64,000 nt of DNA from Amoebophrya sp. A120 (Eukaryota; Protista; Dinoflagellata): positions 62,001-126,000 of the forward strand of contig CAJINV010000031.1 in assembly GCA_905178155.1 (NCBI GenBank), in the 5' to 3' direction. Positions 87 to 63,563 of the stretch are shown piece after piece. The notes below the pieces were generated by a model. That model saw only the letters and a list, made by a program, of their open reading frames with translations. It did no database searches and was not told where the DNA came from. The translations under genes and the position numbers were made by a program. How positions within the stretch are numbered: position 1 is the stretch's first letter; every line of letters starts with the position of its first letter.

Positions 87-1920
87 TTGTTGGGTGTTGG
101 CAGCAGCGAAGATGTAGTGCAGCTGCGGGCACGAGGTGAAGAACAGGTCGCGCCGAAAGCACCGCAGAGGAAGGAAAAAGTAAAAGCCGCAGTTAGTAGT
201 CGCAGTCTAGAGCACAAGAAAAGGGTAAAGAAAGTAGAGCGTCCGTGGACAGAAGATGACATCTTTGATTTTGGAAATCAAGTTGCCCCAGGCGTGTTCG
301 TCGGGCCGGACAAGCTCTTCGCACTGGTGCATAAAGACGATGTGGAGAACAAGTTCCGACGGCGAGCAGGGAGCGAGCAGGTGGTCTCGGACGCGTACGA
401 CAAACACAACACCGACGCCGTGTTGCGGTGGAAAAAGGAGGTAGCAGACAAGTGCCTCACCCACGTCGTCTTATCCTGCTTAAAAAAGCTCCCACCCCAG
501 AGTCAAGATGAGAAATGTGCATCGCAAATCCAAATTCCTATAGTTTTTGGAGTTGAGCATGACAAGTTCCTATTAGTAGCGCACTGCTGGTTAGTAAGAA
601 GGATAGCCGTACCACAAGGTCGCGCCCTTTGTTTCCTGTTATTTGCAGCATTACAATTGCCAAGACGCGGCTAGACGAATTGCCTCTCACGATGTAGATG
701 CAATTCTGCATGACGACTCTGTGCTGGGGACGTTTTTGCTCAGGATGCATGTCGATCCACGATTATTTGACCATAGACAAGAAAAACTTTCCGAACGTCA
801 GGGAGCTCTCGCACTTTTCGGGACTCTGTGACGACGATGCCACGGAGCTGGGGCCGGTGCTCGAGTCCGCAATTACCGCCATACACGAAGGCTTGTGGCA
901 GTTGGCCGTCGGCGGAGCGGCGCCGATCCGCTTAGACGCGATCGCACGAGAGCAATGGAACGCGCTTGTGGTGCATTCCGATTCCGAAGATGGCGGCGAG
1001 GGCGAGGATGGTCAAGTTCCCGCTTCTGCGAGGCCGGCGAAGAGGACGAAGCTCTCGGCGACGCAGCATCATGAGCAACAGCGTAACCCCGTCCGAGTGG
1101 AGGCCGCGGCGCGTTGTGAAGAGGCAAGCAACCCCGAACGAACGTTGCGGAACAAAAAAACGCCTTTCCAGCTACCACGCTGTCGGTCTTTGCGTAGAAG
1201 GTTTTTTGATGTGGTCCCCCTAGTGCAGGATAGATGGTGATGATGCATGAAGACGTTAGTGATAATTGTATGTAAAATGCAAAAGTGCAAGGGAAATGCA
1301 AATGGAAATCACGTACAACAGGCTTATTTTTAATTTGGCCGTGCGGCATTTCTACGCATGACGGAGGGATGAACTTTGTGTATTTTGAAAGTGCGCAAAA
1401 CCAAAAGTGGCTGTGATGGTTTCTTTTTCTTGGATACGCCCTGGTGTACATTCACTGTCACCAAGGGTGCAGTCGTTCTGCGGCGTTGTGGATCGCGTAC
1501 GTGGTATGCTGCTGTGAAGTTCCTGATCTAGAATTAGCTCTCCACACGGCACAGCAAGGACGTTACCTGGTATCGCCGAATGACGCCTTCCTAGAACAGG
1601 GCAAGGGGAAAGGCTTCGGAGGGGGCTCGTCATCCTCGTCATCATCATCATCTTCTTCTTCGTCTTCTAGTTCCTCCTCGAACAAGCAGGGAGAGAGAAA
1701 CGAAAACCAACAGCAGGACACGAAGCATACAGCAATCAGCGTGACGCGGACGCAGTCGCGGCGTTTTTGGCGAACCACTTCGCGAGAAAACACTTCGACG
1801 CCACGAACTTCTACAACCCGGCGGTTCTCCCGACAGACCACCGGGAACACATCTTTTCCACGCGGATGGCAAAGCCGCCAAGAGTGGCCGCGGGAGCGGA
1901 GCAGCCGAGCTTCGTGCTAG
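87..1920 (+). CDS. Dual-specificity protein phosphatase (multi-exon, both ends uncertain, may start upstream of the window)
   Basis: Catalytic motif VYIHCHQGCSRSAALWIAYV at 1444-1503, followed by SPNDAFLEQ; removing element 472-747 gives CLTHVVSIHDY; the junction near 1160-1440 is unresolved. Confidence 0.75.
472..747. mobile_element. TIR introner element, family D (degenerate)
   Basis: TATCCTGCTTAAAAAAG...CGTTTTTGCTCAGGATG; TSD cgtct/catgt; removal restores frame. Confidence 0.75.
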
Positions 1921-3187
1921 ACGAGAATCTAAAGTCGGCAAACACCACACAGCCTGGAAGAGCATCTGCGCGCGTTCTATCGTGTGGGAAAATTTCCGGT
2001 TTGCCTGGGAGTCTGTTCCTGTAGTACAGAGCGGCTTTTGTGTTTGTTATGGACCAATTTGTACTGCATGGCAAGTGTTTATATTTGCATTTTGTGTGGT
2101 GTGGGTCTCTGAAAATCAAAATTCAGATAGGAAATTTGCCCAACTCCATGTCCAACTCCAACTCGGCGGACGGGAAGCGACCTCCGGAACGCAAAGAAAG
2201 AGATGGCGAGCTTCTTTCGGATCACTGATTCTCAGTCCGTCTTCGCTGCAAACAGGTTGTGAAAATCCGGACACTCTCGTTAGATTACATTTTTATCAAA
2301 ACCTTCTAGCAGCACTTTTGTATACAGTTCGGCCTCGGCAGCGTGTTTTTTTTACAACTTCGATGCTCATGATTCAGTGCGGAGCATAATTTTCGGGCAG
2401 TCGCTCTGTCCTGCAACGTTGATACCATTTTTTTCTGCATCGCTTCTGACACGACATACAGTAGAGTAAGTAGTCACGCACAACAAGTATGGCAGCAATG
2501 ACAAAGAAACTACGCGAACAAATCACGTTCGCGAAAATCCCCTGCTAGTTGCAGCGGAACTCTTTTCAGTAGATTGTCGTCGTAGGCGTAGTGTTCAACT
2601 GTCGCGGACATCTTCAGCGGGATGTAGAACTTCTGCACACACTGCATGCAGCTACCACGACTCGGTATCGTGCAACTCTGTGGGACTGTTTGGCCCGTGC
2701 TTCATTTCGTAGAACAGACAACATTGTCGGTCAAGGAACGTTGTTCGTAGATAGATTGCGATTCAGATTCGGATTCGGGCGGGGATGCACGTACAACGAC
2801 AAATCGAATTTGCGGGGGTTCCACTTGTAGTCCTCGTTATCCAAGCGTATCGTTCTGAATATTTCCATCATCGTCGTAGTCACATTCTTGTGGGAGGGCG
2901 ATTTTGGAGATTTCACTGTAAATCAAAATTTATGGTACTGTTTTTGGCGTGAACTTTTCGAACGAACAGCAACAGCATACCGTCTCTCCTTGTCCTCCCA
3001 GTCAACCCCTGGATCATCCACTACCTACCCACCACAGAATTTTTTAAACTGCGCAGCTTGCGTTAAAAATAGAAGTTTATACAAGATCGATTTTTGGTTT
3101 GTCGTCTAAATTGCTAAGGAAATAAAATCAGATCCAAAAAGCACGCTCCTATCAGACAGTCAGTCTGCTTCCACCCCAGTTGGCATC

Positions 3188-4174
3188 ATGTCTCTCCGTC
3201 GCTCGGCGTCAATTCCGGCGGAGCTCTGGCCGCGGTACAAGTTTTTTTCCGACCCGACCACGCAAAGCCGACTAGATGCGGACCCAAAGAGGCTGGCACA
3301 CATCCAGAAAGACCCCAGCACAATAAAGTGGGAAAGACCCTCCAGTCTGGTGGAAGACGCGAGCTGGGACAAGTACAGCATTTTTTTCATCTAGGCGCTT
3401 CTAGCCCTGGTGTATTTTTCACCGCCTGGCTACCTAGGGAGACAAAATGACAGTAAATTACCTTTCGTCTCCGACCAAGACCAATACTTGCGAAAATTGA
3501 TGTAGTAGTGGAAGAATATCACTTTGGTAGAAGGAGGATTCATCTCCAGGACGAGCTAGTACGCGCTCGCGCTTTATACTCTGAAAGGTCGGATGGACTT
3601 CTGTAAAACCGAAAGAAAAAAAACCCTTAGGTACTACTTTTTCTCGGACCCGTCAATCGGAAGCTCCGTGCACACCACCGCGAGAAAAGGGCGCAGTCGA
3701 GTTGCGGCAAACGGGCCAAATACCTTCGGACCGCAATTTGTGAGCAAGTTTACGCCCCCTCTGGATACCAGCAAAAAGTACATTTTTTTTTGTTGCATAA
3801 AGGACTGATAGATCTGTTGATGTAAAGCTGTCGCCTCGACATCGACCGCGACACTGCGGGGCGAAGTTCATCTTGAGAAAGAGTCACGATGGTCATGGTG
3901 TCAAGCATGTTTCGATCTCAGGATCAGTTGTATGCGAAAGAAATTAAGTAGCCCTCGGATTTATTTCTCCATCACAATACTACATTTTTCACCACAGGCT
4001 GGCAGCAACAACGCACGATGCGACATACAAGGACCTGATGCCGCGCGTGATTGAGGAGAAGGCACCCGAGAAGAGTATTTGCCCCCACATCTTTCCCCAT
4101 GGCCACGTTACGATCGACAAGCTGTTCGCCAACCCGCGGCCGCAGGGACCGTCCGGCCGGGCCATGATCATCTG
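3188..4174 (+). CDS. Hypothetical small multi-exon protein
   Basis: Three GC-richer blocks (about 3188-3371, 3631-3777, 3998-4174) separated by GT..AG-like AT-rich stretches; FFSDP occurs in two exons. Confidence 0.35.
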
Positions 4175-5663: not shown

Positions 5664-7172
5664 ATGCTTGAGTCCTCTGTTTCGGGTCGCGGGCCGTCCT
5701 CCTCCGCCCGCAGTATGCTGCTACTGCCGTCGCTTGCAATTCAAGTTGTAGCGTTGGCATTTTTCATCTTTCACGATACAGCCCTCTCCGGCGTCAAGGG
5801 CGTTCGCGTACGTAGTTCCGCCTCCCATTCCCGCCCTGCCTCTTCGTCTGCCGGCGCCCAGACGCACGGCCCGGGGGACTCGCGCGTTCATCGAGATGTT
5901 GAAGTGGCAAAAAGGCTCGGACATGACCTCGCTTTGTGCTTCAGCACCGTTCAGACGCCGGGACCGGAGAAACAGGAGACAAAGCGGACGAGTCGTGCTT
6001 TGGAAAAATTCAATCGAATGACGTTTCAAAGCGGCGAAGTCGAAGACAAAGCGGAGACAATGCGGGGCGAGCTTCTGGAAAAACTCACGAGGGAACGTCG
6101 CGTCGGATGGGCCTCCGCAAAGAAGTTGAAGGGCTTGCGTGATAACCTGCGAGACATGGGCGAAATCATTGGCAAGGCCAACGCCAAGGACACAGGTCGC
6201 GGCGCACCTCCACCTCCTCGGAAAGAAAAGCTCCGGTTTTTGAAGGTGTTTTCGGAGCTTGTGGCGACTGCTTTGGATGCGTCCGAACTTCGCCTCGCCG
6301 CACCGGAGGAATTTGACAGCATAGTGGACGGCGTCATGCTTGCGTGGATCGACGCAGCGGCCGGCGAGGTGGCCTGCCGGACCGCCGAGGGGTCGCCCGA
6401 GCTCTCTTCGCATTGGGAGCGCCCGCCGTACGTCTTCATTCAATCGGCCACGGAAACGGCGGTCGAGTACACTCTCAATGCCCGCCTACAGCAGTTTGCG
6501 AGACGCGCGCGGAAGCGAGGAGTTCCGGCGACTTTTCTAGAAGATTTGCGAAAGTCCGATCTCGTGCGGGGCGTTCTCGTGCGAGCCAACGGAAATGGTG
6601 GTGAGCCAGAGGTGAATTACATGGGCCACAACTTCGGGGAGCGAGTGGAAAGTATGCCGACCGCTTTACGTGGAGTGATTGACGGGAGCGCGCTGCCGCC
6701 TTTTCTGGTTACCCGCTACCCTCCGCTCGATGATCCGTCAGTCCAGCCTAGAAGACTGAAAATACACGCATTGATTCGCTACGAGCCTGCTTTCTTTCGG
6801 TTCTTGTATCATCCGAAAGTGCTGACCCTCGTCAGCGAAATGCCACCACGAGAACGGATCGCAGACACTTTCGTTTATGGCGTTTCAAACGTTACATTCT
6901 CAACTGTTACATGAATTTGTCATGCAAAATTGCCATAAGCCGCCACACGATCAAGGTGCTTCACATGACAAATTCTCGAAGGGCTAAACAGCAGGGGAAT
7001 CCGTTCCAAATTTGTAATGCAAAACGCGCAATCTTCCCGCTTTGGCTTTTACTTTTGCTGTTCTTGCGCCACAAATTAATGTAACAGTTGAGACTGTAAC
7101 AGTTGAGAGTCCCATAGCGTTAGCGGCCTCGAGGGCGAATATCTCGCAGTCGAACTGTTCGGGAGACAGTGA
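5664..7172 (+). CDS. Hypothetical protein with N-terminal hydrophobic segment (2 exons)
   Basis: 416-aa ORF; removing element 6876-7116 continues it as ...DTFVSGLEGEYLAVELFGRQ to TGA at 7170-7172. Confidence 0.7.
6876..7116. mobile_element. TIR introner element, family E
   Basis: TATGGCGTTTCAAACGTTACATTCTCAACTGTTACAT...ATGTAACAGTTGAGACTGTAACAGTTGAGAGTCCCATA; TSD tcgtt/gcgtt. Confidence 0.85.
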
Positions 7173-7199
7173 GGCCGTGATGAGGTCGGCACGGCGATG

Positions 7200-8155
7200 G
7201 GCGTTCCCGAGTACTAGGAAGACCCGAGTTATAACGTTTTCTTCCTTTTTTCGTATTGATTGAAGGAAAATACTGTACGATCAGACGTTTCCAAAAATTT
7301 TGACGAAAAAGACCGATCGCGCAAAGCTTCTTGGCAACTTTTCGGCAGGGCGCTTTATTTATCAGGAACGTAGTATTAGCAGGGTCTCGTGCGTCTATTG
7401 TTTTGATTCGGTTTCGCCTTATTCTAATAATTGACCATTTTGAATTTGATGCACATTCAGAAAACTGGGCCAGGAAAGTGTTCCCAGCCGGTTTCTTTTA
7501 TGTGTAAATACTACCTGTGAAGAAGGCAACACGACTATACGCTACTCATGTATGATGAGAATGTAAATTTTTCGAGTTAGGTCGAGGTAAAACGTCGCTC
7601 GCAATTATTTTGGTCCAAGGCTCCCCAGTTTATCGACTTACGGTAAGGCAAGGTACAAGTTTGCTCGTTGTTATTTTATGGTTGGTCCAATGTAGTTCTC
7701 CAGTTTAACAGCTTTTTTTGGTAGGTTTGGTAGTTGTAAGTGACACCAAAAAATCTGAAGAGGTTTAGGTAAGGTCTCCCAGGTTTGCCTCCGGTTCTGT
7801 TGTCTGCTGAAAAAAGAAGAAGTTTTGAACAAACAAGCAGGCTCTACCATTTTAGGCCGTAAAATTTACGGCCGTTGCTGGCGTTGCGAGTGCGTGACTT
7901 CAGTTTCGAGTCTGCGTCGCGGGGCAGATAGACGATCTCGCGCACGCAATACCACAAAGACAAAAAAAAAGGCGTAGCTGTTGTAACAAGAAAGCAAAAA
8001 CTACACGAAAGAAATCTATCGCAAGACGAAAACAGGTTTGCGTACAATCTTGGAAAAAAGTTTTCAAACGTAAACCACTGGAAACAAACGTGGATGTGAT
8101 ACATTTCCTACCAGGAGCGCACGAGGTGGAAGGCAGTACTACCTGCTCCCAAAAG
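7200..8155 (+). repeat. Diverged non-coding direct repeat, copy 1
   Basis: Shares colinear blocks with 9315-9815 (GGAAGACCCGAG.TATAACGTTTTC, TGGGCCAGGAAAGT.TTCCCAGCC, ACGCTACTCATGTATGATG, GAAGGCAGTACTAC.TGCTCCCAAAAGT). Confidence 0.8.
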
Positions 8156-8693
8156 TTTTTTCCGCTGATGTTTTTTTTCGCTGCTTTTTTGCATTCAGTA
8201 TTGCGTCAGTTGTCGGATACTTACCTCCTAGGACGACATTGCATCGGTATTGTTTTGTCATGTTGACGAGTGTCGGCTTTGTTTGTTTTCATGGGTGCGT
8301 TTCGTCGACCTTTTTTTACCTATTATGGGTAGGAATGTCCGTATAGGAGTTATGCCGAGAAATAATCCACGGACAATCCTGAAGAACCTGAGTCATATTT
8401 TTGACGTGACTTTCCTGGTCTGTTTTTTTCCACGATCTAATTGTACATATCAATGTCTGTCTGTGCTTCTCGTCTCTACTGGTGCGAAACAAGGTTCTAG
8501 TTTCAAAGCGTGGTTGTGTCTCACCCACCTAATAGCACAGATGCCGATGTGAAGTTCGTGATAGCACCTTCTCTGTCTTTCTCCTGCTCGCGAACCCCAG
8601 ATTTAACTTGCTCCTCTACAACTTCGTGACCAGTTATTTACGGTCTCGTAGTGTCTCTTCTTTGAAAGCTAGATACAACGGTGGAAAGCGAAA

Positions 8694-9314: not shown

Positions 9315-9815
9315 ACGTTCCCGAGTAGGAAGACCCGAGCTATAACGTTTTCTCCGTAATTCCTCAGTATCGACTGAGGGAGTTCGAGGGAAGTACTGTA
9401 AGATCAAACGTTTACAAGAATTTTGACATAAGAGACTTGAATGTGCAAAACTCGGGAACTCTTTAGCAGAACGCTTTTGTCAGCTAAGGAGCAGAGTTTC
9501 TTTTGTACGTCTTCTGTTCTTTTGATACACCAACTTGGGCCAGGAAAGTTTTCCCAGCCACGGTTTCTTTTGTTACTACCTGTGAAGGCAACAGAAAAAC
9601 CACGACTTACGCTACTCATGTATGATGCACCTATGGTTTAGCTGTTGTAAGACAGGAGAAACTACACGAAGGAAATCAATCTCAAGACGACAACTACAGG
9701 TTTGCTACAATCTTTAGAACATTTTTTCAAACGGAAACCATTGGAAACAAACGTACTTGATACATTTCCTACCCGGAGCGCATGAGGTAGAAGGCAGTAC
9801 TACTTGCTCCCAAAA
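9315..9815 (+). repeat. Diverged non-coding direct repeat, copy 2 (lacks about 400 bp of copy 1)
   Basis: Colinear similarity to 7200-7560 and 7975-8155. Confidence 0.8.
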
Positions 9816-10722
9816 GTGCAGAGTCGGGCGCTGTTCGCAAGTTCTTTATCTTTCGTGTTGACGTGGCTCATGTAATACATAAAGACTACAATAAACTATG
9901 GCCACAAGAAACTACGCGGAAGACGATCTGGAGTTGCAAGAAGCAACAACTAACAGGATCACGTCGAATAACAGCAAACGCGCTTCTTGCGATCAAACAG
10001 ACACGTATAATTCAAACGGAAAAAAATCTTCTCCTGACTCATCATAGTCGGAAAGAAAGACGGAGAAAGTGAAGGAAACATCAGACAACTCAGGGTGTAT
10101 CGGTGTAGTCCAGTATAATGGATGTTTAGTACTTTATGGAGTCGCGAGACTTTTACTTATCACAGATTGTAAGTCACGGCGGCAATCTTTTTCTTTTCTC
10201 CGCAGAGAAACTTATGAAGACAATATCAAGCCTTGATTCCGTGTGTACTATCTGATGCAGACAGAGGAGTGAATCTGAAGAGCTGTTTTTTTGAGTCCTG
10301 CGTATTGAATTCCAAGCAGCTGCTCTCGTTTGGCAGCAATTACGACCTGAGTAAAATATTGAGTACGTCTTATTTCGTATTTCGCCAACATGAACATACT
10401 GCCTTGTTCACGACCGCATTGAAAACTACCGGCAATGCGATCTACAGGTTGATGCTAGGTGTGGCACTTATGTCGGTTCGCATCAACGAGCCGAAAAAAG
10501 GAGCTGTACAATAATTCCTTGTAAAAATGATGGAGTCGCTGGCGCCGGAGTAGTCCTCTGGGTCGCGTTTCTTTCCCGGCGGCTCCTATTTTGTTGCCAC
10601 AAGTCGCGACTTGAAATCTAGAACCCGAACCAGACACCTACAGCCAGCAGAAGAGGAGGTTCTGTCTTCCACTACGACAGGGACCACCGCACAGTGTAGA
10701 TCTACAAGTTCCGTCCCCTTCT

Positions 10723-12060
10723 ATGTCGGGCGGCGGCGGGGACCCCCCGCCTGCGGGGACGGCGGAGGGCGAGGCGCTACTCGCGAGTCTGTCGCGGGCG
10801 GGCTTCCCGGGGGCGCACCAGCACCAGTCGCCGCTGATCTCGCCCTCGAGCACGCTGAAGGGCATTCCAGGCGGGTTGAGCGCCATATCAAATGTAAAAG
10901 TGTCTGGGTCTGGAAGATTGCCAGGTTTGGCATTCACATTTTGCATGACTCCTGATGTCTGTGATGCATGCCCTAGCATCACAGATTTTGTGAGGGCTTC
11001 CTGTTGCTTATACCGCATGACAAATGCTCTTTCTGTGTAGCAAAACTTGGACTCTCTTTGCTGTTCATGCAATACAGATTTTTTTAGAATCCAAAATCAG
11101 CATGACAAGTTGGATTCTTCGAGACCCAGACATTTTTACAGTTGATACGCCAAGCTGCAGAGCGATGCGTCGAAGATCTCGATCGCCGACCTGGAGGAGA
11201 TCCGGCTGCTGGCGATATGGAGTGCAAAAGTATCGTACTCGTAGTAATCGCAGACATGCATTACAAATCTTGTTCTCAAGGTAAATCCGCATTACAAATA
11301 CGAGTGCGATACTTTTACAATGCATGAGCAACCCAGCCCAACAATGAGGAAACCATCGACGGGGTCGCGCGCCCGGGCCGCAACCTGTCCGCGATGGAGG
11401 TCACGCACCCGCCCTACCAAATTGTGGTCATCTACAACCAGAGCCGCCACGCCTCCAACAGCGTGCTCGCCGACGTGCGAGCGGTTTGGGGCCAGGCGGT
11501 GATCGTGGTGCAAACCGTGGAAGACATATCAAATGCAAGGATTATGTCAGGGTCTGGAAGAATGCAAGTTTATAGTCATGCTCGCCCAGCAAAAGAATCC
11601 TCAAGCCTGTCAACATGCACGCTAGTACTCAAGCAGACTAGAGCGCAAGTTTTCTTTCATGCACATCCGCAGTTTGCCAAATGCAGAATAGACAACACGT
11701 AGCAAGTCAAAATAAACTTGTCATGCTTCGTCGTCAACTGAAGCGTCCTCATGAAGATTTTCGTCCACCCCTGCATCACAAGTTTTTCAGACCTTGAGGG
11801 ATATTTGCACTTGATAAGACAACGCGGTGAGCGAGTCGACCGAGACTACAACGAACTCCGTTGCCAACAACCGCCTCCAGGGGGTCGACGACGTCATTCT
11901 CGTGCGGCCGGGGAAGTGGGGCGACCTGGACCACTTCAAGGAGCGCATGGTACTACACTGATAGAATACAACCGGGATCATATTGATGAAAATCTCGACT
12001 TTATTTTGGAATAAACTACAGGAAGAACAGGACTACTGAAGATTCATTTTTGATGTGTGC

Positions 12061-12094
<34 letters not shown>

Positions 12095-25349: not shown

Positions 25350-25576
25350 TATTTGCTTAATACTTGAAGAAGCTTTAAGTCCGACGTGAAAAGCTATTTT
25401 GATCATGTCGAGATTCTGTTCAGCAAAATTTTTATACGATGTTCATTTTTCAAATTCAATCATCCTGAAAACGCGTTTGAGCGTAGCATCCTTGTATGGA
25501 ATTTGAATTCATCGGCCACGAAGTGGTGCAAATGATGCAGCAGGAGAACTAACGCAGCAGGTCGTGGACCACAAGG

Positions 25577-49400: not shown

Positions 49401-52400
49401 TACGGCCGGATGGCACGGCCCTCTTGCGTTTTGGTCTTGCTCCCGCCGACGTCGTTCCTGTGGACCTCGCCAACCTGACTTCTAGTGCGATCCACATCAG
49501 CGCCAGCTCCGGAGACAGCTACAAGCTACTTGGCCCCACCGAACAAAAAGCATCAAAACGCCTGATGGAAGCGGTTTTGATGGGTAGTGGTTCTTCATCA
49601 GGAGGAGCTGGACAACAAGAACATTTTTATCGAGAGCGCAAGAAGAGTCGAGCGTGTCCTGGGAAGCGGGAAGTTGAAATCCAACTAAGTGAAAGCGATA
49701 AAGCGGTCTGGGGACAGTACTGCCACTCGTTTGTAATCTGCGAGGAGGAAAGGCGCAATAAGACGGGCGCAACGTCGGCGACCAGCTCTCGGCAGCAACT
49801 ATACGCGGAGGAGTTCTCGCAGCATCGAAGTGGTGGAGGTGCTCCGCCCCACAAGGACGAGCTGCAGCTTCTACACGGGCGCTGCCACGAGTGGAAAACC
49901 CTGAGCCAGTATCAAATGCAAGAATGTCTGGGTCTGGAAACTTGTGATGCTGGATGGCGTCTCATGATGAGGCCACAAATGCTGGCTCAGCATGACAAGT
50001 TTCTGAGCTCCTAGGTGTTGCCTATTCTGCATGACAAACTGCCCTTCTGCATCACAGAAAAGCGGAGCTCTTGGGTAACGTGCATGACAGATTTAAGAGT
50101 CATGCCAGACAAGCATGACAAACATGAATTCTTCCAGACCCAGACATTTTTACATTTGATAGCCAGATTTTCACGGGGGTCCGGGTGTCGGCTCGCACCG
50201 ATTCCGAGGTTCACCAGACCGCGGCTGGGACCTTGCTACGCGATCTGGAGGAAATGAGGCACCCTAGCAGCCGTCCGGACTGGAGAAGCATCGACATATG
50301 AAAACAGACAACGAAACTCCCCTCTGACCTCGAAATTCGATCATGAAATATGTGTGTAGAAGGATTACGCACTGATCAAGACATTAAGCATGAATCAGCT
50401 TTTTACTAGCATTTCGCTTGCTTGTCGTGTAAACAAGCCTGAGAAGAAGCATGAACCGGGAATACAGAAGATCGGTGCAACACGTTGGAGTGCTACCGTT
50501 GACGGAGGAAAAGAAATGCTGCCTTGTATCTATACTTGTAGTAGCGATGTTGAAGCGCCGCAGGAGTAGTTATAGTCCCTGCGTTGTTCTTGAACTTGTG
50601 TCTGTGCTGTCATGTTGTTGATCAAAATCTGCCTGAGCCTGCAGATGAGGCGGAGGTGGAACAACGCTTCCATTTGATACGATGTGTCGAACTACGTGAA
50701 TGTGGCTGCGGGAACCCATCTGGCGGTGACGTTTGTGAGCGCGGGTGCGGACGGGAAGCCGGCTCCGATGGGTTACCTGGACATGGTCAAGGGGCTCGTG
50801 CACAAGAAAGCGCGCGGCCTGCATCAGAAATACTTGTCCGACCTGCTGGTGCCGCTGCCGGCCCGTATTATGAACGAAAACTCGAAGAAACAGGTGTACC
50901 GGCTGGAGGGCATGCGGTGGCTGAACGACCCCAGTATTGACTACTCGAAGCCGTTGTCGGCAGCCGCGAAGTATGCATTGCAAATATGTCTCCTGGGTCT
51001 GGAAACCTGTGATGCTGGTTTGCGAATCATAAAAGCAGCCTCCAATATGGGGACGCGCATGACAAGTTTCTAAGCGACTAGGTCTTGCGTCAAATGCATG
51101 AGAAACTGCGTTTTTGCATTACAAAAAAATAGACTGGTGGCGCAACATGCATGACAAATCCTCCTCTCCTGTCAGCAGAGCATTACAAGTCTGGTAATCT
51201 TCTTCCAGACCCACACATTTTTGCAGTGGATACGTTGCGGCAACTAGATGAGAACGAGGACCAACGCGCGTTTTTGCCGGCCGGCGTGCTACTCGGCGGC
51301 CACGGGCAGGCGGACAACCAAATTGAACCGTACGTGAGCGCCTTCGCGTGGACCAAGTTCTTGCGCGAGCAGTTGGCCCCATTGGCAAAGCAGTGGTTCA
51401 ACATCGAGCACCAGTCGACATCTTCTGCTGCTCGGAAGGAGGGCACGAAAGGACAAGAAGAGGAAACATTGTCAGGCATCACGGGAAGGAGCAGCGGTAC
51501 GAGACGGTCGGCGGAGAATGAAGCCGAGGGAGAGGACCCGCGGGACGGGAGCACTAGTCATCCACAGAAGCGGTGGGTGCAGCCGGATGAACAAGAGCAA
51601 GTCCTTGGCACGTCACACCCCGAGAATATTACTAGCACGCAGGGACAAGAAGAAGAAGTGCGGAGAACAGCAAGAGCATCTTCAAAGAGCCCCTTAATAC
51701 CCCTCGTGCTAACTGGTGGACAGGCCAGTGCGATTTTGCGCGCGGCGGGACCGTATCAAATGCAAAAATGTCTGGGTCTGGAAGATTCTGAGACTTGTCA
51801 TGCACGTTTTGCATGGGCCATGATGCCTGTGATGCATACCCTAGCAATACAGATTTTCTGAGGGCTTCTTGATGCCTATTCCGCATGACAAATGCCTTCT
51901 CAGCGTAGCAAAAACTGCATTGCCTTTGGTACTCATGCTATACAGATTTTTTTGGAATCCAAATGCAGCATCACAAGTTCGGACTCTTCCAGACCCAGAC
52001 ATATTTGCATTGCATAGACCGAAATCGAACCATGGCGATGAGACGCTCCGGTATTTGCGAGAAAAGTTCGGGATTGTGGTCTTGGCGGGCTACGATTCCT
52101 ACGTCCACTGCGGCACCAAGCAGATGGAGAACTGGACGTCGCGGTCGCCAGGTAGTTTACAACAACAGCACGACGGCTTATTTCAAAACAATACCGCCCT
52201 CGCAGTAGAAACTACGAAGCGGTCCTGTCGTGGGTTCGCACCGGAGGAAATCCGGCGACGCGCCGAGCAGTACATGCATAGTAAGGGGGAAGAGCAGGAT
52301 GATGAGTCTCCGGGAAGATCACCGCGGAAGAACAAGACGACGACAAGGAACAACGGCCCGGCAGCTCTTTATAATTCTTCCGGAAGACCAATGAGCAGGA

Positions 52401-52801
52401 GAAGTAGTAACACGCTTTCCCTTGATGTTTCGGGCCATGATGGAAATACTAGATCCGAACCAGATGTTGAACAAGAAGCAAAAATTACAAGTAGCCCTCG
52501 TCCAGAAGATGAAGATGTCGTGTCCAACATCTCGAGCATTGACTCAACATCATTTTCACCCTTTTATTCGCCGCCGTCACGTCGACCCCGCGATGCGATT
52601 CTAACTGTGCACGACGAGAACACCGGATACAATAGCGAAAGGCGAGTCACAGTTGTAAACGAGACCGCTTCATCGACTGGTCCTAGAAGTACTTGTTTAG
52701 AACAGCCTTGCGGTCATGGAAATAACAGCGAAAGTCGCCGCCCCGCCGCGGATCTGCCCCAGTATGGCGCAGATGGAGCGCTTGCACTCGGCAGCGATTA
52801 G
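40409..52801 (+). CDS. Large membrane-anchored protein: TM + mucin-like stalk + GT1 UDP-glycosyltransferase + ROK/ASKHA-like sugar kinase (link of 40409-42120 to the rest uncertain)
   Basis: TM IYMGLALVLTVVLLACLCGALAG near 43000; GT1 motifs PPHVLF..LARQGVRVTLLAP, DFVISD, LYIAFG, APQLKLF..FYVAHGGVSGLTEAIGLKVPIICVPMLFPDQPAN; then LSLDLGGSGLK, VSARTDSE, YVNVAAGTHL, LVLTGGQ; 12 element introns. Confidence 0.75.
40578..40839. mobile_element. TIR introner element, family A (262 bp)
   Basis: Family A TIRs; TSD tctgg; near-identical to 10886-11147. Confidence 0.95.
41380..41631. mobile_element. TIR introner element, family A (252 bp)
   Basis: Family A TIRs; TSD agcga; near-identical to 49910 and 63311. 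Confidence 0.95.
42566..42886. mobile_element. TIR introner element, family I
   Basis: TATCAAAAGGAAAAATCCCCCCTCCCCATATC...GATATGGGGAGAGGGAATTTTTGCTTACGATA; TSD cacat. Confidence 0.93.
43155..43416. mobile_element. TIR introner element, family A (262 bp, open in the host frame)
   Basis: Family A TIRs; TSD ccccg/ccctg. Confidence 0.92.
45406..45729. mobile_element. TIR introner element, family D-like (diverged)
   Basis: TATCACATGAGGAGAAACGGGGGTCCC...GGGACCACGTTTTTCCGCACGATA; TSD gaccc/aaccc; gives YEDPEQDRV. Confidence 0.85.
46936..47197. mobile_element. TIR introner element, family A (262 bp)
   Basis: Family A TIRs; TSD tcctc. Confidence 0.95.
47651..47965. mobile_element. TIR introner element, family I
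   Basis: TATCAAAATGAAAAATCCCCC...GGGGGATTTTTCCTTTTGATA; TSD cttcc; splits the GT1 signature. Confidence 0.95.
48065..48316. mobile_element. TIR introner element, family A (252 bp)
   Basis: Family A TIRs (right end GATG); TSD ctgtt; gives PMLFPDQ. Confidence 0.93.
49910..50161. mobile_element. TIR introner element, family A (252 bp)
   Basis: Family A TIRs; TSD gccag. Confidence 0.95.
50297..50679. mobile_element. Old, degenerate TIR introner element
   Basis: Ends TATGAAAA...CATTTGATA with weak internal TIR; TSD cgaca/cgatg; removal bypasses a stop and joins in frame to SNYVNVAAGT. Confidence 0.65.
50972..51232. mobile_element. TIR introner element, family A
   Basis: TATGCATTGCAAATATGTC...ACATTTTTGCAGTGGATA; TSD cgaag/cgttg. 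Confidence 0.9.
51754..52016. mobile_element. TIR introner element, family A (263 bp)
   Basis: Family A TIRs; TSD gaccg. Confidence 0.95.
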
Positions 52802-55072: not shown

Positions 55073-58000
55073 ATGCGGGGCTCCCGCGGACAACAAGAGA
55101 GCGCAGGCGGCGAAACGCCGGGTGGAAGCGCCGGGAACGATGCAGACCCTTCTCTCGGCGGAAGATCTTCAGGTTTACTTCAGAATGAAGATCCGAATGA
55201 ACAAGATGAGAAGATCTTGTGGTCGGAGGCGGACATTTCTTACATGGAGCAGTGGCTCAACGACGCGGAGAAGAGGCAGCTCCGGAAGAAGATACATGTG
55301 ATTAAGGAGTGCAAGGGAAAGTGTCGCACCTTGCAAACTATCCAATGCATCAAATAGGTCTGGGTTCTGGAAGACGAGTGCGAGATCTGTCATGCAGCTT
55401 TTGCTTGACCAAAGTCCGATCGGGCATGCAAACTCTAGCATCACAGATTTTGTTGAGCAGGTACTTACCCCACTGCCTAATCCGCATGACAAATCCACTG
55501 TTTCGGTAAAATAAGAACTGGGGCCTTTTGCTAGCCATGCATGACAGATTTTGTCATGGTGTAGACTTCTGCAAATCGCAAATCTGAATTTTTCCAGAAC
55601 TAGACACATTATATATTTGCAATGCATACAACCCATGGTAGACACTCAGGGGAAAGGAGAGCCCCTGGTGGAAGAGACGGGTCAAGGCTTGGAATATGTG
55701 ACGCGGCGACGGCAGATTCTGGAGTACTGTGAGGAGCAAAATACGGGGGTCCGTAACTTGAAGGGCGCTGCAGCATCGAGACAAGCGGAAGCGCGGAGAG
55801 AAGAGGAACGGCAACAGCAACGGAGGAAAGGCGCGCTGCCGGTGCAGCACCGCGGAGACGGACCACCCGGACCGCAAGTAGAAAGGCCGTTACTCCAAAC
55901 TTATTCACCGCAAAAGTATAATAAATCGTGTAGTCTACTTACTACTCGTATATGAAAAGATTCTTGCTGAAGTAGATGTCTTGCATGACATTACCATTAG
56001 ATCTAGCAAATCTTATCGGAATTATCCGCATGACAAATTTTCACCGCTGTTCGTGAGAAAATTTATCATGCAAAATAAATGTGTACGACTACGTCTACAA
56101 CGCTTTTGCACCAATGCATAAAACTTTACTTGAGGAACAATATCAAGAAGCTCCAGCGATCGACGAGAGTCGGCACGCTGCGACACGGGTAGAAGTACCG
56201 GCGAAAATGAATCCCACTGGTGCCGTCCAGGTGTTGGACTTCGGCTGCAAGGAGCCGTCTGCGTCGAGTGCCACTGCTTCGGGTTGTAACATCTTCCAGC
56301 AGCAACCTTCCAGCAGTAGTTCTCGACCACCAGTAGCTTGTTCGTCTGTGACAGCACTAAAACCCGGTGGGGGACCACTCGGGAAACCAGAACAGTTGTT
56401 GATGTCGCGGCCCATACAATGTACCAGTGATGAAGTAGTGTTTTCAAAATCAAAATTTGGAGAGCGAGATGCTTGCTTTCGTTTTCTAGCGGAATGTTTT
56501 ATTTCTGACCCATTCAATTGCATACAAATGGCATATGTTTTCGTTTTCTTCGCATGGATGTCGGTTTTTCAAATAAACGTCGTCGGCGCTACTTTTCAGG
56601 TTCCGACGAATTTACTCAAGATTTACTCGACCGAATTTGTGCCGATCATCGCGATTGTTCCAAAGAAGTCCGTCTGGGGCTGTGGAACAAAAACCCGACT
56701 CCACCGAGGCCAACGGGTCAGGACACGACTGCACTTCTTGTTCCCGAAACGATGAACAACAGGGCAACACTTCGAAACCCCGCTGGGCAAGAACATCCAC
56801 TTGCACAGAACGCTGAAAATAAGGTCGTGCAGCACGACGACGACCACGTTGATAGCGAGAGTGTCTACTTCGAGCGGCCGCCCGATAATTGGAGGTCGAG
56901 GTCTGGGTCTTGGATGCCGGACGAGGAGGTCAACTCTGCTTCACCAAAGAACGAAATCTACGTTGGCCCAGATCTACTTGCTTCTAGCAGTAGTGGCAGC
57001 TGCAAGAACATGTTGCCGAGTGGACAAAAGTCCCCTTCTGCTTTTGAGGGCCTAGGCGCACGACCCGAGTTGGGCGACGGGGAGGACAGCAGCAGTATTT
57101 TGGAAGAAGAGGAAGATGTGTGCGCTGTGGCGCGGAACCCCCTCTGCCATCTGCTAGCGGACGATGAAAGCAGTTGGAGAGAAGTGCTACCAAACTGCAT
57201 CAACCGTCGTGCCAGGAATTGGCTCGGTAAAATTTATTTGTGTCGAGGATCTTCACTTTTGAATGATGATGTTCGTCCGCCTGCGCACTGTATGTTATGA
57301 CTGAGGTTGAGTCATTTGAGTCGTGAAAATGTAGTGGCATATGAAATTTAGAGGACAATTTTACTTATTTTGGTTGGAACAATGGAAGAACAAGCAAGTG
57401 CCTACCAATTTTGCCGACTGCCTAGCGTGGCACGCTCGCAGACCATAACTGTTGGTGCACGACGATTTCTCGAGAAGCTACTGCAACCTGCAGCGGGAAC
57501 GCCTCGACCAATCGGACGTCGACGCTTACACCAACCGCATTGCGCTCATCCTGCGCGTGACCGGGCACATCGACGCAGGTGGTGGTATCATCGGCCCGGC
57601 CGAGGGGGCCCAGACCACCCGGAATGCAGCACGGAACTTTTTGGCGTACTCGGTGCCTCTCAACACCAGGGCCGACGACCTGCCATCACTTGCAGGAGCT
57701 TCAGCACAAGGAACTTCATCTTGTGATGTGCCTTTGGCTTTACCGCCGCCGAGCACAGATTTGACTGATACGCTACGCGATTTCTTATCAACGAGTTTGC
57801 AATTTTCATCCGATAAAAGTTCTCTGGCGGAGGAAGTTGACGTTGAGGACTCAATTTCTGCTGAAGGATCATATGCATTGCAAATATGTCCTCTGGGTTG
57901 TCTCCTGCTGGTGCTGGAAGACTGCGAGATTTGTTTGTCATGCTAGTCTGACATGCCGCTGCAATTTGTATTGCATGGCCACCAGCAGTCTCTCTTGCCT

Positions 58001-59564
58001 GTCATGCAAGAACGCAGTTTCTCATGCGAAATTCGTAGCGCAGCAGCACGACGAAACTTGTCATGCCTGGCGGCGCATTGCAGTGCATTTATGTTTCACA
58101 GACTTTCATCACAAGTTGAAGTTGAAGTTTGAGTTTCCAGCAGACGCAGACATATTTGCAACGCATAAAAGAAGTAGTTCATCTTTCGGGTCTTTCGCCC
58201 CGGACCACGCACTGCTTGTGTACATTCCGCAAGCGGAACTGAGTCGCGCTTCGGAACAGGCGTTACCACTGAAGAAGCCGAACTTCGAACATTCCGCATT
58301 TGCGATCCTGAATGAAGTTACGAAGCAGGTAGAAGAATAAATACATAGCAGACGTCTCTAGTACTTCTCTATCTCTTTATGTTTGCAAGAAGAATTGCAT
58401 ACTTGCAGCCCGAAAATTATCAATCTCCGAAAATTCTAGAAAAAAAGCTTTCAAATTCAACTTCGACTACATCGGAGATCGATTGCCGAAATCGAATGAC
58501 AATAATAAAACTCTACCGTAGTTGCAGACCGCAGATATTGGGACGACGAACAAGGACTTGAAGCAGAAAACCACCAACGGCGGCGTAGGTCTGCTGTGCC
58601 TCCTGGCCCACTCCGCGCAGGAGGAACGGCACTGCTTGGAGCTGAAAATCCGGCCACGCGAGGCGACGCTGCAATCGTGGCTAGACGGCAAGCCGGATGC
58701 TCGGCGTGACGAAATGTTGTCGAGGACCACCTGCGCAAAACTCGCTGGTGCAACCAAAACCGAGACCTTCTTCCTGAAGCAGCAGATTGAGGCAAAAACA
58801 ATCGTCGAGACCCGAGCGCGCGGGTTGGGAGATGTCCTGTCTTGGTGTGGGCAGGACAAGAACTTCGGCGACCACTACGAAATGAGCTTGGTGGCAAATG
58901 CGTTACCACCAGCAGAGGCAACCACGAGTGGACCACCGGTGGACTTGCTCGACTTAGAGCCCCTTTCTGCTCCCGGATTCTTTCTCATTGCGTTCACGCA
59001 AGTTTCGACCCAAAACGGTCGCTCCGAGGTCCTTCGTGATTTCCATCTCCCGCCCGCATGCAGGTACATAGTTCTTAATCGGACTTTGTGTTTGTCGAAC
59101 TGTTCTACACGAACAAATTGAAGATGAAATGCTGAAAAATTGAAATGGTGCAGCTTCCCGATGTAGTTTTGCAGAAATAACCAGTTGTTGAAACCCAGAG
59201 CTGCTGCAACTTTATCATTTCTTCTTGCACGACGACCTGGCGTCGCAGTTTTTGTTGTCGCAAAATGTGTTTAAATTTCTTCACCAGATCGCTGTACCTC
59301 TACCGGTGGGCAGAAAAGCGTGTGGCGTGGGGAAAGTGCGATGGCGCGGCGTGCTCGTTGCAACGGCAGAACCTGGGGTGTAACGTTATTACCGTCAAAG
59401 AGGACCGGACGGAAATGGGTCGGGATGGCAAAACGCGTACCGTCGAGAAGCAGTTCTGCAGCTTCTGTCGTGGCGAAAACCTGCATTTACCGAAAAAGGC
59501 GATCATTCGCTCCGGTTACAAACTGGATCTCGGCTTCGGATTGTACTACGGAGTTTATCGTTGA
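55073..59564 (+). CDS. Hypothetical multi-exon protein (could be more than one gene)
   Basis: Chain of + strand GC-richer ORFs (55073, 55551, 56081, 56518, 57452, 58522, 59265); two junctions restored by element removal; no family recognised. Confidence 0.5.
55339..55628. mobile_element. TIR introner element, family A (diverged)
   Basis: TATCCAATGCATCAAATAGGTCTGGG...ATATTTGCAATGCATA; TSD caaac/caacc. Confidence 0.88.
57872..58167. mobile_element. TIR introner element, family A (diverged, TSD eroded)
   Basis: TATGCATTGCAAATATGTC...GACATATTTGCAACGCATA; flanks gatca/aaaga; removing element + 5 nt keeps the frame. Confidence 0.85.
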
Positions 59565-59721
59565 TATTGTGTGCAATTTTATCTAAACATCACATATCGA
59601 ATTCGAGTTTGTGTTCTTGTTTCATGTTTCGGCGCGTGCCTCGCGAAGGATATTTGCACGATCAATCGTAAGCAGATGACTTTTTGATGTCACTATCGAA
59701 TAATGTCAAAACAGGACTCCG

Positions 59722-62700
59722 TTGACGAGCGCAACGGCGCCTAGCAGCAGAGCCCGGGGTCACCAAGTAGGGCCCGGAGCACAACCGTCGTCCTCGTCGG
59801 CTGCACCGCCGGCGGTGCAGTATCCGGATTTCATCACCTATGGTGCCACTGGCAGTCCGCTCTCGGAGGCAGCTCTCGACGACGGGGGCCACGGTAGTGG
59901 TAGGAGTCCACCTCCCAGCGGGTTGAAGGTCAGGTGGGGCCCTGGATCTACTTCGAACAACAAGGGCGTCGTCCACATCACGGCGGTATCAAGGGCAAAA
60001 ATGTCTGGGTCTGGAAGAGTTGGAACTTGTGATGCAAACTCTGGAACACACAAAAATTTGTGTTGCATGAGCGCCAAAAGCTGTCCATTTCTTGGTACGC
60101 AAGTAGAAAGTTTCTCATGCGGGACAGGCGTCACGAGGCGTGCTCAAAACCTGTGATGCTTTTGCCTGCACCAGACGCCATTTGCGCGATCCGAAATATG
60201 CATGACAAATCTAGAAATCTTCCAGACCGAGACACTTTTGCATTGGATAGGCGGCCTCTTGTGATGTGTCCAGGGAGAACGTGGAGGACGTGCTGCAACA
60301 CGTTGAGACCCAGTTGCGGTATGAACTGCAAATATGTCTGGGTCTGGAAGAATGCAAACTTGTCATGCTCGGCCGACAATGCACAAGAGTCTGTCATGCT
60401 TGTTGTGCTACAGTGCCACTTCTTTGCCATGCAAAAAGGCAATTTGGCACGCGATTAACGCTAGACGTAGCCAACCAGAAACTTGTCATGCGCGGCTCCG
60501 CAATACAGTTTGCGTATCATTCGGACATCAGCATGACAAGTTTCCAGACCCAGACATATTTGCAATGCATATGTGGTCGATCGGAGCGATTCTCCCGGGA
60601 GGTGAGGAAGCTTCATCCACCGGGGATCAAACTACAAGTGCCTGGCAACCTGCGACGACGAGAAACTTCGAGGTGGTGGATTTCGATTTCTCAAACAACC
60701 GACAACTTGATTGCTACTGCACCCGGATGCTCACGAATTGGCTTCAGTACCACGAGCTCATGCCGCGCTCTTTGAAGCTGTTCAAGTGCAGTCTGGGAAA
60801 CCGGGGCGCCAATGTGATTGCCTCGTACTTAATTTTATACTTACTAGATAAACTACTTACAACCAAATAATAGATCTCGTACTTCCACCTTTACTGCTGC
60901 TTCAGTTCCTCGGTTGTTTCCGTCGGCAGTGATAGCAGTCTTTATTCCGTTTGATTGATGTTTCTTCGAACAATTTCTTCTACTTCCAAACTGAAACTAT
61001 TGCTCGTCCGCTATTTTTCTCCACATAAGATAATTCAAAATCAAATTCTGTCATTGCGAAAAATTTTTGTCCAGGTTTTTACGGAATTTCAAACGGTTTT
61101 TACTGGGCGCGCGGATGGACGCAGGTGACACGTACCCATGGGTGATGGAGGAACTGCACTTGTCCGATAACTACATCGAAAACGCGGGCATTGCGCCACT
61201 CATCAAGTTTCTCAGCGACGAGACCACCGAGAAATTGTTACGACAGTGCACTATTCCCCCTCACCCTCATTTGTCATGCAAAATCCCAACTTTACCTTCG
61301 GCCTGTTAGCACTTTTTGCATGACAGACTCCACAAGCCACAACAGCCCTGCAATCCTCTTGGAATTTGTCATGCAAAAGCTGCATCTTTGCCAGCGCTTG
61401 TGTTGCTGTTCATGCAACACGAATGAGGGGGAGGGGGAGTTGTGCACTCTCATAATTGTACCCGCGCGTGTACGAGCCGTCGGTTGGCGACAGAAAACAA
61501 ATGATTGCGGAGCTTCAGGACAGAGGTACTTGCTTTATAAAGTAAGTTGTAAACTTCAACTTCTCGCCCTGCGATACTAAATTGATGACTAACTAAACAA
61601 AAGTCTACATTATACCACGCGTCCGCTCAACATTCTCTTCTCGTCAGGCCTTCCTTTTTTTTGCCTCCCTCCTCGCTACGAAGAAGACGCGAAAAACGCG
61701 ACGTGCATAGAAATTTCAGCAATAAATTCAGTAGACATTCATTCTTGGCTGGTGCCCAATTTGATGCGGATGTGAAGAAGTAGACCCTTTGTTTTGTTGT
61801 AATTACTTCTCAACACGCAAGGCTTGTCCAGAGTAAATTCCAAGCTCCGAGGCACAACTTGAAATGCTTCACCGTAAGTACGACAAACTACCAGGTTACG
61901 ATAGCGAGGAGCACAGATTCACCTACGGGATGCGCATTATCAAAATGTTGAAAAAATCCTCCCTCCCCGTACTCAAACTCAAAATGGAATACTGGTGTGC
62001 GCACATTGTGCGTCAGAAGCTCACCCATTTTGAATACTACCGGGAGGGTGGATTTTTCTTTACGATACACTTTTGCCGCCCGCTTATCAAATGCAAGCAT
62101 GTTGTCTTGTTTCGATCTGGGTCTAAACTTGTGAGAATGCTTGCTTGCAACTGCAGTTTCGTGATGCTTTCATCGAGTGTACCTAAGCTTGACTTGTCTT
62201 GTGTGTAGCTTGCGGCATTTTTATTGGATGGCAAAATACGTCGCGCTCGCGCTTTGTTTGCGAGTCATAGTACATAACAGGTTCTCGTTCATGAATGCCA
62301 GACACACAATACAAGAGCATTTTTTATTGTTCCCGACCAAGACTACATATTTGCGATGCATACCGCTGTGGGTTCGCCTCGATCGCAACCTTTTGGACGT
62401 GCCGAAGTTGGTGCTTGTCGAGGGTATGTCGGTGTGTGATCTGCAAAAACACAGGTGGAGCCAGCTGCGCGGTAAAAAGTTCCGTTTCCTGGCCATTGCC
62501 CTATCCCGTGCAGAAAGAAACATCTCGTCCACGACGACTCAAGAGTCAAGCTGCGAATGCTGCAACATCGAACTGCGAAGAAATATAGTTATGCCGAAGT
62601 TTTGGAAGTCACGCATGACAAGATCTCATCTGTAGTGTAGCACATGCGCGCAAAAACAGCTTGAAGAAAATCTTCATGACAACTCTGGGGTGTCTGTGGG

Positions 62701-63307
62701 CACCAGCTCCGGTTTTTTTTTACACAGGATACGCGGGGGAGAAAAATTACCAGACGTACCCGGTTTTCCGGGACGAGTGTGCCGCAGAATTGTACCCAGC
62801 GGCCCACTTCAGCCATATCTATAAGCAATGGGCACGCACGGCGACGAGAGGCCAGTACAAGCAGACCAACCAGTCTCCCTTCGAAAACGACGACTCTGGG
62901 TGGAATTCCTACGGGTACGGGGGCTCCAGCTGGGATATCAGAATGAAAAATCCCCCCTCCCCATATCAAAACTGAAATATGTGATGCAGATTTGTGGTCA
63001 CAAATCAGCTTTGTCATGCTAGAAGGCAAAAGATGCGGACTGTACTGCTGCCTAGCGTGGGAAAGCCTTGCAGCTCCAGGATGACAGGAGGCAACTGGAA
63101 GTGGGAAACAGCATGACAGATTACCTGCAATCTAGGCCGCAGATTCGTCTCTTGGCCTTCTCGCAATACAAGTCGATTTGTGTACTCAAATACAGCATCA
63201 CAAATTTGCGCATCTTCCGTTTCCGATATGGGGAGGGGGGATTTTTCCTTTTGATATGGGAGAAAAAGTCAGGAGGTAGTCCGTCCCCGAAATGGTGGAA
63301 GAAATAA
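59722..63307 (+). CDS. RNI-like leucine-rich-repeat protein (start uncertain)
   Basis: VVDFDFSNNRQL, PRSLKLFKCSLGNRGA, MEELHLSDNYIENAG, EKLYPR, PLWVRLDRNLLD after removing 7 elements; stop TAA at 63305-63307. Confidence 0.7.
59987..60249. mobile_element. TIR introner element, family A (263 bp)
   Basis: Family A TIRs; TSD ggcgg. Confidence 0.95.
60320..60571. mobile_element. TIR introner element, family A (252 bp)
   Basis: Family A TIRs; TSD tgcgg/tgtgg. Confidence 0.95.
61239..61454. mobile_element. TIR introner element, family F
   Basis: TACGACAGTGCACTATTCCCCCTC...GAGGGGGAGTTGTGCACTCTCATA; TSD attgt. Confidence 0.92.
61938..62067. mobile_element. TIR introner element, family I-like, short (130 bp)
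   Basis: TATCAAAATGTTGAAAAAATCCTCCCTCCC...GGGAGGGTGGATTTTTCTTTACGATA; TSD cgcat/cactt. Confidence 0.8.
62085..62362. mobile_element. TIR introner element, degenerate family A
   Basis: TATCAAATGCAAGCATGT...ACATATTTGCGATGCATA; TSD ccgct. Confidence 0.88.
62502..62731. mobile_element. TIR introner element, family D-like (diverged)
   Basis: TATCCCGTGCAGAAA...TTTTTACACAGGATA; flanks tgccc/cgcgg; removing element + 5 nt keeps the frame. Confidence 0.75.
62936..63256. mobile_element. TIR introner element, family I
   Basis: Family I TIRs; TSD tggga; closely similar to 47651-47965. Confidence 0.95.
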
Positions 63308-63310
63308 GAC

Positions 63311-63563
63311 TATCAAGTGTAAAAATGTCTGGGTCTGGAAACTTGTGATGCTGGGCGGCGTATCATGAGGAAGCCGTAAGTGCTGGCTCAGCATGACAAG
63401 CTTTTGAGCTTCTAGGTGTTGCCTATTCTGCATGACAAACTGCGTTTCTGCATGACAGCAAAATGGGGCTCTTGGGTAATGTGCATGACAGATTTAAGAG
63501 TCATGCCAGACTAGCATGACAGAGCTCGCATTCTTCCAGACCCAGACATTTTTGCATTTGATA
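63311..63563. mobile_element. TIR introner element, family A (253 bp), at the stop codon / 3' UTR boundary
   Basis: Family A TIRs; TSD aagac overlaps the TAA stop. Confidence 0.95.

Follow-up and report, generated by a model that had tools for sequence, protein, structure and literature searches.

We analyzed a 64,000-nucleotide (nt) stretch of the genome of Amoebophrya sp. A120 (contig CAJINV010000031.1, positions 62,001 to 126,000; hereafter the window), in which we found 56 inverted-repeat elements of the form TAY...ATA, 111-671 nt in length. The results support the conclusion that these elements act as introns with non-GT-AG ends, and that they are lost together with a further 5 nt. The elements are introner elements of A120, already known from Farhat et al. 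(2021; PMC7789003); A120 proteins match exons of the window and the features of the elements agree with that description. An earlier note on this DNA had pointed to introners reported from Amoebophrya genomes. What appears to be new is a rule for the cut, deduced from gene annotation, in which one nucleotide before the element and four nucleotides after it leave with the element (hereafter the 1+4 register). Statements on the cited publications refer to parts of their text.

Elements of the window and their loss from transcripts

Sequence scans identified 54 of the elements and annotated proteins revealed two decayed ones, in line with the earlier count of about 50. A strict scan, in which candidates needed both inverted repeats and a 5-bp direct repeat without mismatch, listed 22 pairs in the window. 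Without the repeat requirement there were 250 candidate pairs, 26 of them with an exact 5-bp repeat, compared with none in each of five shuffled controls (135-196 candidates apiece). A looser scan made 63 calls in the window and 16-26 in ten Markov nulls, and its list was therefore curated by hand. The 5-bp target duplication claimed in the earlier note was exact in 31/56 elements and imperfect in 25/56. When 53 elements were clustered at 70% identity, window elements fell into nine multi-copy families, the number previously estimated, beside 19 singletons.

Further, a pattern scan of metagenome contigs provided a sample of at least 136 public loci (L001-L136), 80 of which had long flanks. Among the matches listed, we located 300 elements by their ends alone, without using the repeat; an exact 5-bp repeat was present in 237/300, a 4-bp repeat in one and a 6-bp repeat in none. 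The loci were chosen by young terminal sequence, and old copies are therefore under-sampled. The public assembly behind them contains the same element families, with identities of up to 97%; no window exons were present among the listed loci.

The effect of removal is seen in a biotin-carboxylase-type gene (pyruvate-carboxylase-like; 10723-20106, plus strand), which encodes 1433 amino acids after removal of 16 elements and five GT-AG introns (11950-12242, 13320-13555, 14632-14805, 16236-16399 and 18636-18890). The rebuilt protein is identical to Amoebophrya A25 protein P0001 at 1003/1390 aligned residues, and for the large exon at 16.4-17.7 kb the top-ranking homologue is likewise an A25 protein (66%). 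A search with 15 Pfam queries gave a Biotin_lipoyl match in this gene and a sub-threshold UDPGT match, with no other family. Ten of the 16 elements were found by both scan and reconstruction: 10886-11147 (repeat CGCCA), 11527-11816 (AGACA), 12394-12644 (CGATC), 12695-12956 (GATCT), 13009-13212 (CCGGC), 15068-15345 (TTCCA), 15358-15566 (TGCGC) and 15621-15885 (GCGAA), all with exact repeats, and the short element 11216-11326 (left and right repeats GGCGA/AGCAA; ends ATG) and 13786-13943 (TTTAA/TTCAA). An old element lies at 14229-14550 (TAGCG/TCAGG), and five further elements are described below. For each element, the frame is preserved when an additional 2, 5 or 8 nt are removed and lost at other lengths. 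At 5 nt the conserved motifs VTPFS and MKMETRI are rebuilt, as the earlier note had claimed, and the alignments (VTPFSEYK, MKMETRIS) neither gain nor lose a residue.

Loss from transcripts was seen directly in the same gene. Of the words sampled from 10.4-20.2 kb, four sequencing runs, probably RNA, contained 0.41-0.44 and two other runs 0.82-0.84. One contig of run X1 aligns to 16744-17736, 18222-18632 and 20000-20861, and the two gaps within it (36 and 268 nt) and its 2570-nt span correspond to removal of five elements, with 5 nt each, and one GT-AG intron; of the uniform offsets from 0 to 8, 5 alone fits. The missing elements are 17742-17918 (CCGTT; starts TAC), 17961-18222 (TCATG), 18965-19226 (GAGCG), 19276-19537 (CCTAG) and 19696-20000 (GCGCA; ends ATC). 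The contig also lacks the ordinary intron and is therefore transcript-derived, the run type being a guess. Thus, the predicted loss of element length plus 5 nt was borne out at five sites and by the rebuilt open reading frame. Elements 17961 and 18965 match each other in inverted orientation (91%), and both are missing; therefore both orientations are removed. Element 19696 was removed despite its ATC end, so removal does not require perfect pairing of the termini. The junctions were deduced from the coordinates of the contig pieces, and all five elements have exact repeats; the position of the cut can therefore not be placed from this contig.

Position of the cut

Where the two repeats have diverged, the surviving sequence reveals which repeat copy is kept. 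We examined this in annotated A120 proteins P0085 (GSA120T00025767; host gene 55073-63304, plus strand, 11 elements and six GT-AG introns) and P0106 (host gene part 48425-52798, plus strand), to which the window exons are identical letter for letter. On this basis, from annotated proteins rather than reads, the upstream cut probably lies one nucleotide ahead of TAT and the downstream cut four nucleotides beyond ATA, giving an intron that reads N-UAY...AUA-NNNN.

Six junctions had been listed beforehand. Four or more nucleotides of the upstream copy are kept at 50972-51232 (CGAAG/CGTTG), 55339-55628 (CAAAC/CAACC), 57872-58167 (GATCA/AAAGA) and 61938-62067 (CGCAT/CACTT), at least 3 nt at 60320-60571 (TGCGG/TGTGG) and at most 4 nt at 62502-62731 (TGCCC/CGCGG). 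At the junction of carboxylase element 14229, at least 4 nt are kept; this was set by homologues (A in 40/41 of those having a residue), not by annotation. The two decayed elements identified from annotated proteins, 50297-50679 (CGACA/CGATG) and 57188-57447 (AGTGC/ACTGT; starts TAC), keep at most 4 nt and at least 2 nt, respectively, with TAY and ATA at the same spacing, their ends having been assigned after the fact. Keeping 4 nt fits 9/9 informative junctions, keeping 5 nt fits 7/9 and keeping fewer fits at most 4/9; the chance of a common register across the nine is 0.010. Further, TAY at +2 and ATA ending at -5 were found in 15/16 non-GT-AG gaps of P0085 and P0106. The exception is a 12-nt gap at 48553-48565, where P0106 lacks four encoded residues, probably through an annotation artefact. 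In Table S4 of Farhat et al. (PMC7789003), T stands at +2 in all nine predominant A120 motifs, as the 1+4 register predicts. The sum of 1 and 4 equals the length of the duplication, and any insertion would therefore be seamless.

Several points weigh against this reading. The RNA support comes from one contig of one run, just two junctions exclude keeping 5 nt, and the probability on the six pre-listed junctions is 0.054. A120 gene models derive from transcript alignments, and Farhat et al. describe the border position as variable and unknown, the legend of their Fig. 3 terming the sites variable (PMC7789003). Annotated ends lean to gt/at and ag/ac in the 19 of 58 family rows seen (PMC12130899).

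Two further signals in the repeats were discarded. A conserved fifth repeat base, suggested by 2 versus 11 mismatches in the window (p = 0.02), was not replicated in the listed loci (8 versus 12, p = 0.5), and GC-to-AT changes, followed by direction at each repeat position, gave too faint a signal to place the cut.

Recognition of the elements and the machinery of removal

In the 1+4 register, the intron starts N-T-A-Y in 56/56 window elements, partly by construction of the scan. We describe the termini in a strand-aware set of 53 window elements (55902-56120 was left out) and the 178/300 locus elements with a coding-strand margin of at least 5. In the terminal inverted repeat of this set, the first three positions were T in 231/231, A in 230 and T in 225, and positions 11-13 were A in 208-216/231. 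The ends are polar: the T at the transcript 5' end is invariant (231/231), and the A at the 3' end varies in 10. A mirror scan for a changed 5' T found no credible window element. Private changes in the first 16 nt (150 elements, families of at least five) numbered 38 in the 5' arm versus 64 in the 3' arm (p = 0.013), corresponding to 0.55 and 0.92 of the rate in the strand-symmetric interior. Low change rates in the inverted repeats as such were rejected as evidence, being inflated by the way the loci were selected.

The earlier statement that neither ends nor repeats supply GT-AG in any register holds for most elements. GT-AG is possible in 1/56 window elements (14229-14550) and GC-AG in one (59987-60249); in the strand-aware set, GT-AG occurs in some register in 1/53 window elements and, among listed loci, 7/178 locus elements. 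As a class, the elements lack the U2-type combination of GT/GC donor and AG acceptor, and in the 1+4 register just U+2 and A+3 agree with it. The 14229 element has GT-AG in exactly this register (14228-14554); an old element with diverged repeats, it is now an ordinary GT-AG intron and likely a snapshot of an introner turning canonical. Junction bases are otherwise random while 12/12 ordinary introns keep GT-AG, and this supports a second recognition code. The earlier note had posited a second excision system; this is supported as regards recognition, the catalyst may or may not be separate from the spliceosome, and the 1+4 register fits a spliceosome core at least equally well.

From these sequence features, removal by a spliceosome core with an altered, second recognition mode seems to us an even proposition. 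The elements would be small inverted-repeat transposon copies with 5-bp target duplications, lost from transcripts together with one copy of the duplication. Whichever arm is 5' in the pre-mRNA may supply U+2/A+3 as donor, the 3' cut may be measured from the terminal AUA, the hairpin may help to draw the element ends together, and +1, -1 and -2 would not be read; we hold these four steps jointly at the same even level. U6 touches +2/+3 in the spliceosome active site. We favour the spliceosome core because of the polarity, the U+2/A+3 match, the copy turned GT-AG in the same register and the unpaired copies that keep the spacing. Farhat et al. report that 83/89 spliceosomal proteins were detected but not U1 (PMC7789003), and a fixed 3' ruler has a precedent in Entamoeba (bioRxiv 10.1101/2022.06.08.495308).

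Other observations count against a spliceosomal reading. Positions +1, -1 and -2 match the exon background (p = 0.41, 0.32 and 0.34; n = 222), and there is no terminal-pair excess (G-G 15 versus 19.6 expected; A-C 23 versus 14.5, one of 16 cells, significance not assessed), although splicing is said to depend on terminal base pairs (PMC13326754). Ordinary introns of the same genes are strictly GT-AG (12/12). CTRAC occurs in the last 80 nt of just 11/231 elements in sense versus 17 in antisense, although it is also present in no more than 4/12 ordinary introns. A low-margin locus element ending ATG may lie the other way round (L001) and could then be an exception to the invariant 5' T; another starts TTT, its end call being doubtful. 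The difference between the arms comes from one of several bins tested, and in the window subset it has the opposite sign (9 versus 6).

A separate, non-spliceosomal nuclease and ligase is a serious competitor, if a less probable one. It would make cuts staggered by 1 nt and 4 nt at the foot of the RNA hairpin and then join the exons, and would correspond to the strong form of the second system in the earlier note; such a dedicated machine would ignore junction bases and orientation and exactly undo the 5-bp insertion in RNA. Random junction bases, free orientation (57 versus 56 in six families) and the strict GT-AG of ordinary introns are all as expected from it, and a similar activity is suspected for euglenid nonconventional introns. 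Further, folding of 52 elements showed most of them to be much more stable than their shuffled versions, unlike five GT-AG introns (z -0.9 to 1.5), and G-U exceeds A-C at stem positions 17-30 (131 versus 92, p = 0.011). However, G-U shows no excess at stem positions 1-16 (148 versus 147), and the first 16 nt of the 3' arm change at nearly the interior rate (0.92). Decayed copies 50297 and 57188, which have lost arm pairing (8/22 and 7/22) and kept the spacing, are still annotated as removed, and it would be by chance that TA falls on donor +2/+3.

The remaining explanations are much weaker. Removal at variable positions within the 5-bp repeat, with the fixed register an artefact of gene annotation, would suit the legend and the semi-canonical bias cited above, as well as there being just nine informative junctions. 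It is improbable in view of the low chance of a common register and the 14229 junction, which homologues set; moreover, repeats tolerate up to three mismatches, and variable cutting would yield mixed proteins. Loss of the elements from the DNA of certain nuclei or at a certain life stage, or skipping in transcription, is more doubtful still: transposon-like ends with a direct repeat suit it, but contigs of DNA run X5 at about 41-46x span eight elements intact (15 of 572 joints displayed), and the constraint follows transcript direction, which a process on double-stranded DNA does not predict. Least probable of all is reverse-transcriptase slippage without removal in cells; hairpins with flanking short direct repeats, which the elements share with falsitrons, are its known substrate (up to 70% of complementary DNA (cDNA) reads, PMC8240250), and all RNA evidence seen is cDNA-based, a search for A120 direct-RNA data having found none, but falsitrons are functional unspliced, whereas here a conserved 1433-residue enzyme gene with 16 insertions is untranslatable without removal. 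Moreover, of the two repeat copies slippage would be expected to preserve the downstream one, yet 4 nt or more of the upstream copy survive at five junctions.

Distribution, relatives and significance of the elements

The other elements lie mostly outside the carboxylase gene. Besides the junctions above, P0106 contains 49910-50161 (GCCAG) and 51754-52016 (GACCG), and P0085 contains 59987-60249 (GGCGG), 61239-61454 (ATTGT; starts TAC), 62085-62362 (CCGCT) and 62936-63256 (TGGGA), each with an exact repeat and supported by scan and protein, and 55902-56120 (AAACT, exact). The claim that elements interrupt genes does not apply to 63311-63563 (AAGAC, exact), which directly follows a stop codon and is not in coding sequence. 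Element 48065-48316 (CTGTT, exact; ends ATG) is flanked by PML and LFPDQ, as previously noted, and splits the PMLFPDQ of a UDP-glycosyltransferase-like motif, for which the UDPGT match is below the cut-off.

Scans alone placed the remaining elements. Exact repeats flank 24958-25220 (TACCA), 30590-30738 (CGGCA), 31184-31463 (CGCGC; coding context ambiguous), 37556-37869 (AATCA), 40578-40839 (TCTGG), 41380-41631 (AGCGA), 42566-42886 (CACAT), 46936-47197 (TCCTC) and 47651-47965 (CTTCC). Imperfect repeats flank 472-747 (CGTCT/CATGT; ends ATG), 6876-7116 (TCGTT/GCGTT), 23040-23327 (CAGCG/CAGTG), 23699-23879 (TGCAG/AGCAG), 28530-28796 (CGTGG/CGCGG), 29462-29759 (TGCAC/AGCCC), 29819-30014 (GGCCT/CGCCT), 30316-30549 (ATTGC/ACTGC), 36813-37123 (TGCAA/AGCAA), 37907-38165 (CACTG/TGCTG), 42018-42368 (CGCTC/CGTAT), 43155-43416 (CCCCG/CCCTG), 45406-45729 (GACCC/AACCC) and the 671-nt element 36065-36735 (AGACC/GGAAC), which is more than twice the usual length and may hold a nested insert. 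Exact repeats are found in 13/16 elements of the conserved carboxylase gene versus 18/40 elsewhere, a contrast that may reflect age or selection. Insertion phase seemed skewed (phase 1 in 85/175 carboxylase junctions and loci), which may stem from the frame caller.

All long open frames of the window are on the plus strand. The 12 ordinary introns examined have a GTA donor in 11/12. Their donors are GTAC in 7/12, which fits an organism without detected U1; the common donor elsewhere is GTAAG, beside which GTAC is unusual. No Rfam family was found in the part scanned (window 1-28300). Positions 7217-8160 and 9320-9820 form a duplicated non-coding block, and 63840-63970 is a short tandem repeat. 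Two matches to viral contigs were dismissed as chance 19-mers.

A 9-mer, TTGT[CGA]ATGC or its complement GCAT[GCT]ACAA, is common to families with different ends; 112/113 window occurrences are inside elements. Across families it is present in 331/353 elements, usually 30-50 nt from each element end. Its change rate is 0.82 of the interior rate (p = 0.06), so it is barely constrained after insertion and was rejected as a splicing signal; a candidate transposase or host-factor site is in question, a transposase site being more likely than a splicing signal. The elements would spread as non-autonomous DNA transposons that insert with a 5-bp stagger, facing either way and at sites of random sequence, presumably through an integrase-like transposase. 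Retroviral-type integrases produce 5-bp duplications. The longest open reading frame within an element has 105 codons; no transposase was seen in the elements, and no further search was made on that frame. In A120, families with inverted repeats and Copia-integrase-like open reading frames have been described (Gozashti et al., 2025, PMC12130899).

The A120 introners of Farhat et al. have inverted repeats of TAT, seven variable nucleotides and AAA, hairpins, RNA-supported non-canonical ends, about 29,850 copies and direct repeats of 3-5 nt (5 bp in the Fig. S19 legend; PMC7789003). The window elements are alike in genome, TAT/7 nt/A-run ends, direct repeats, families and non-GT-AG removal, with no difference in kind. 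In the text consulted, we found no mention of a constant 1+4 register, of removal regardless of orientation, of polarity in favour of the 5' arm or of the 9-mer common to the interiors of the elements. Farhat et al. leave the removal mechanism open, as repeated in a 2024 review (PMC11282704) and in PMC11453091. In the openly accessible literature, we found no publication with a solved mechanism or a register that is constant; Figs S19-S25 of Farhat et al. may show the register.

Euglenid nonconventional introns are similar in terminal pairing, junction repeats, likely origin from miniature inverted-repeat transposable elements and coexistence with GT-AG introns; circular products have been reported, and their mechanism is unsolved (PMC11282704, PMC11170887). 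A terminal stem joining the ends is likewise present here, weak or absent in old copies. In contrast, euglenid introns have CAG/CTG a few bases inside and a purine/pyrimidine junction preference, whereas the elements have TAY/ATA and random junction bases. The transposon-derived non-GT-AG introns of Fritillaria borealis are a precedent: the U2 spliceosome that removes them is re-tuned, its recognition factors having been duplicated (PMC13326754); however, Fritillaria keeps preferred ends (AG-AC, AG-AT) and U1, whereas A120 elements have no terminal preference and U1 is reported undetected. IS3EU/GingerRoot and IS481EU transposons share TA..TA (or TNT..AYA) termini with the window elements, but typically duplicate 6 bp of target (or about 4, 15 or 25 bp) rather than 5 bp (PMC10045372).

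About two thirds of Amoebophrya introns are removed without GT-AG, and the question of mechanism has stood since 2021. If confirmed, a fixed 1+4 cut would replace the absence of a splice signature with the single rule N-UAY...AUA-NNNN. It would also put right the annotated borders of introns in the tens of thousands and account for the free invasion of exons by transposons that duplicate 5 bp. A fixed position would also make the removal mechanism testable. Were a dedicated excision machine at work, tens of thousands of insertions would sit harmless in exons. Either the spliceosome would be blind to the first and last bases of these introns or a new splicing chemistry would operate in Amoebophrya, and both would be notable.

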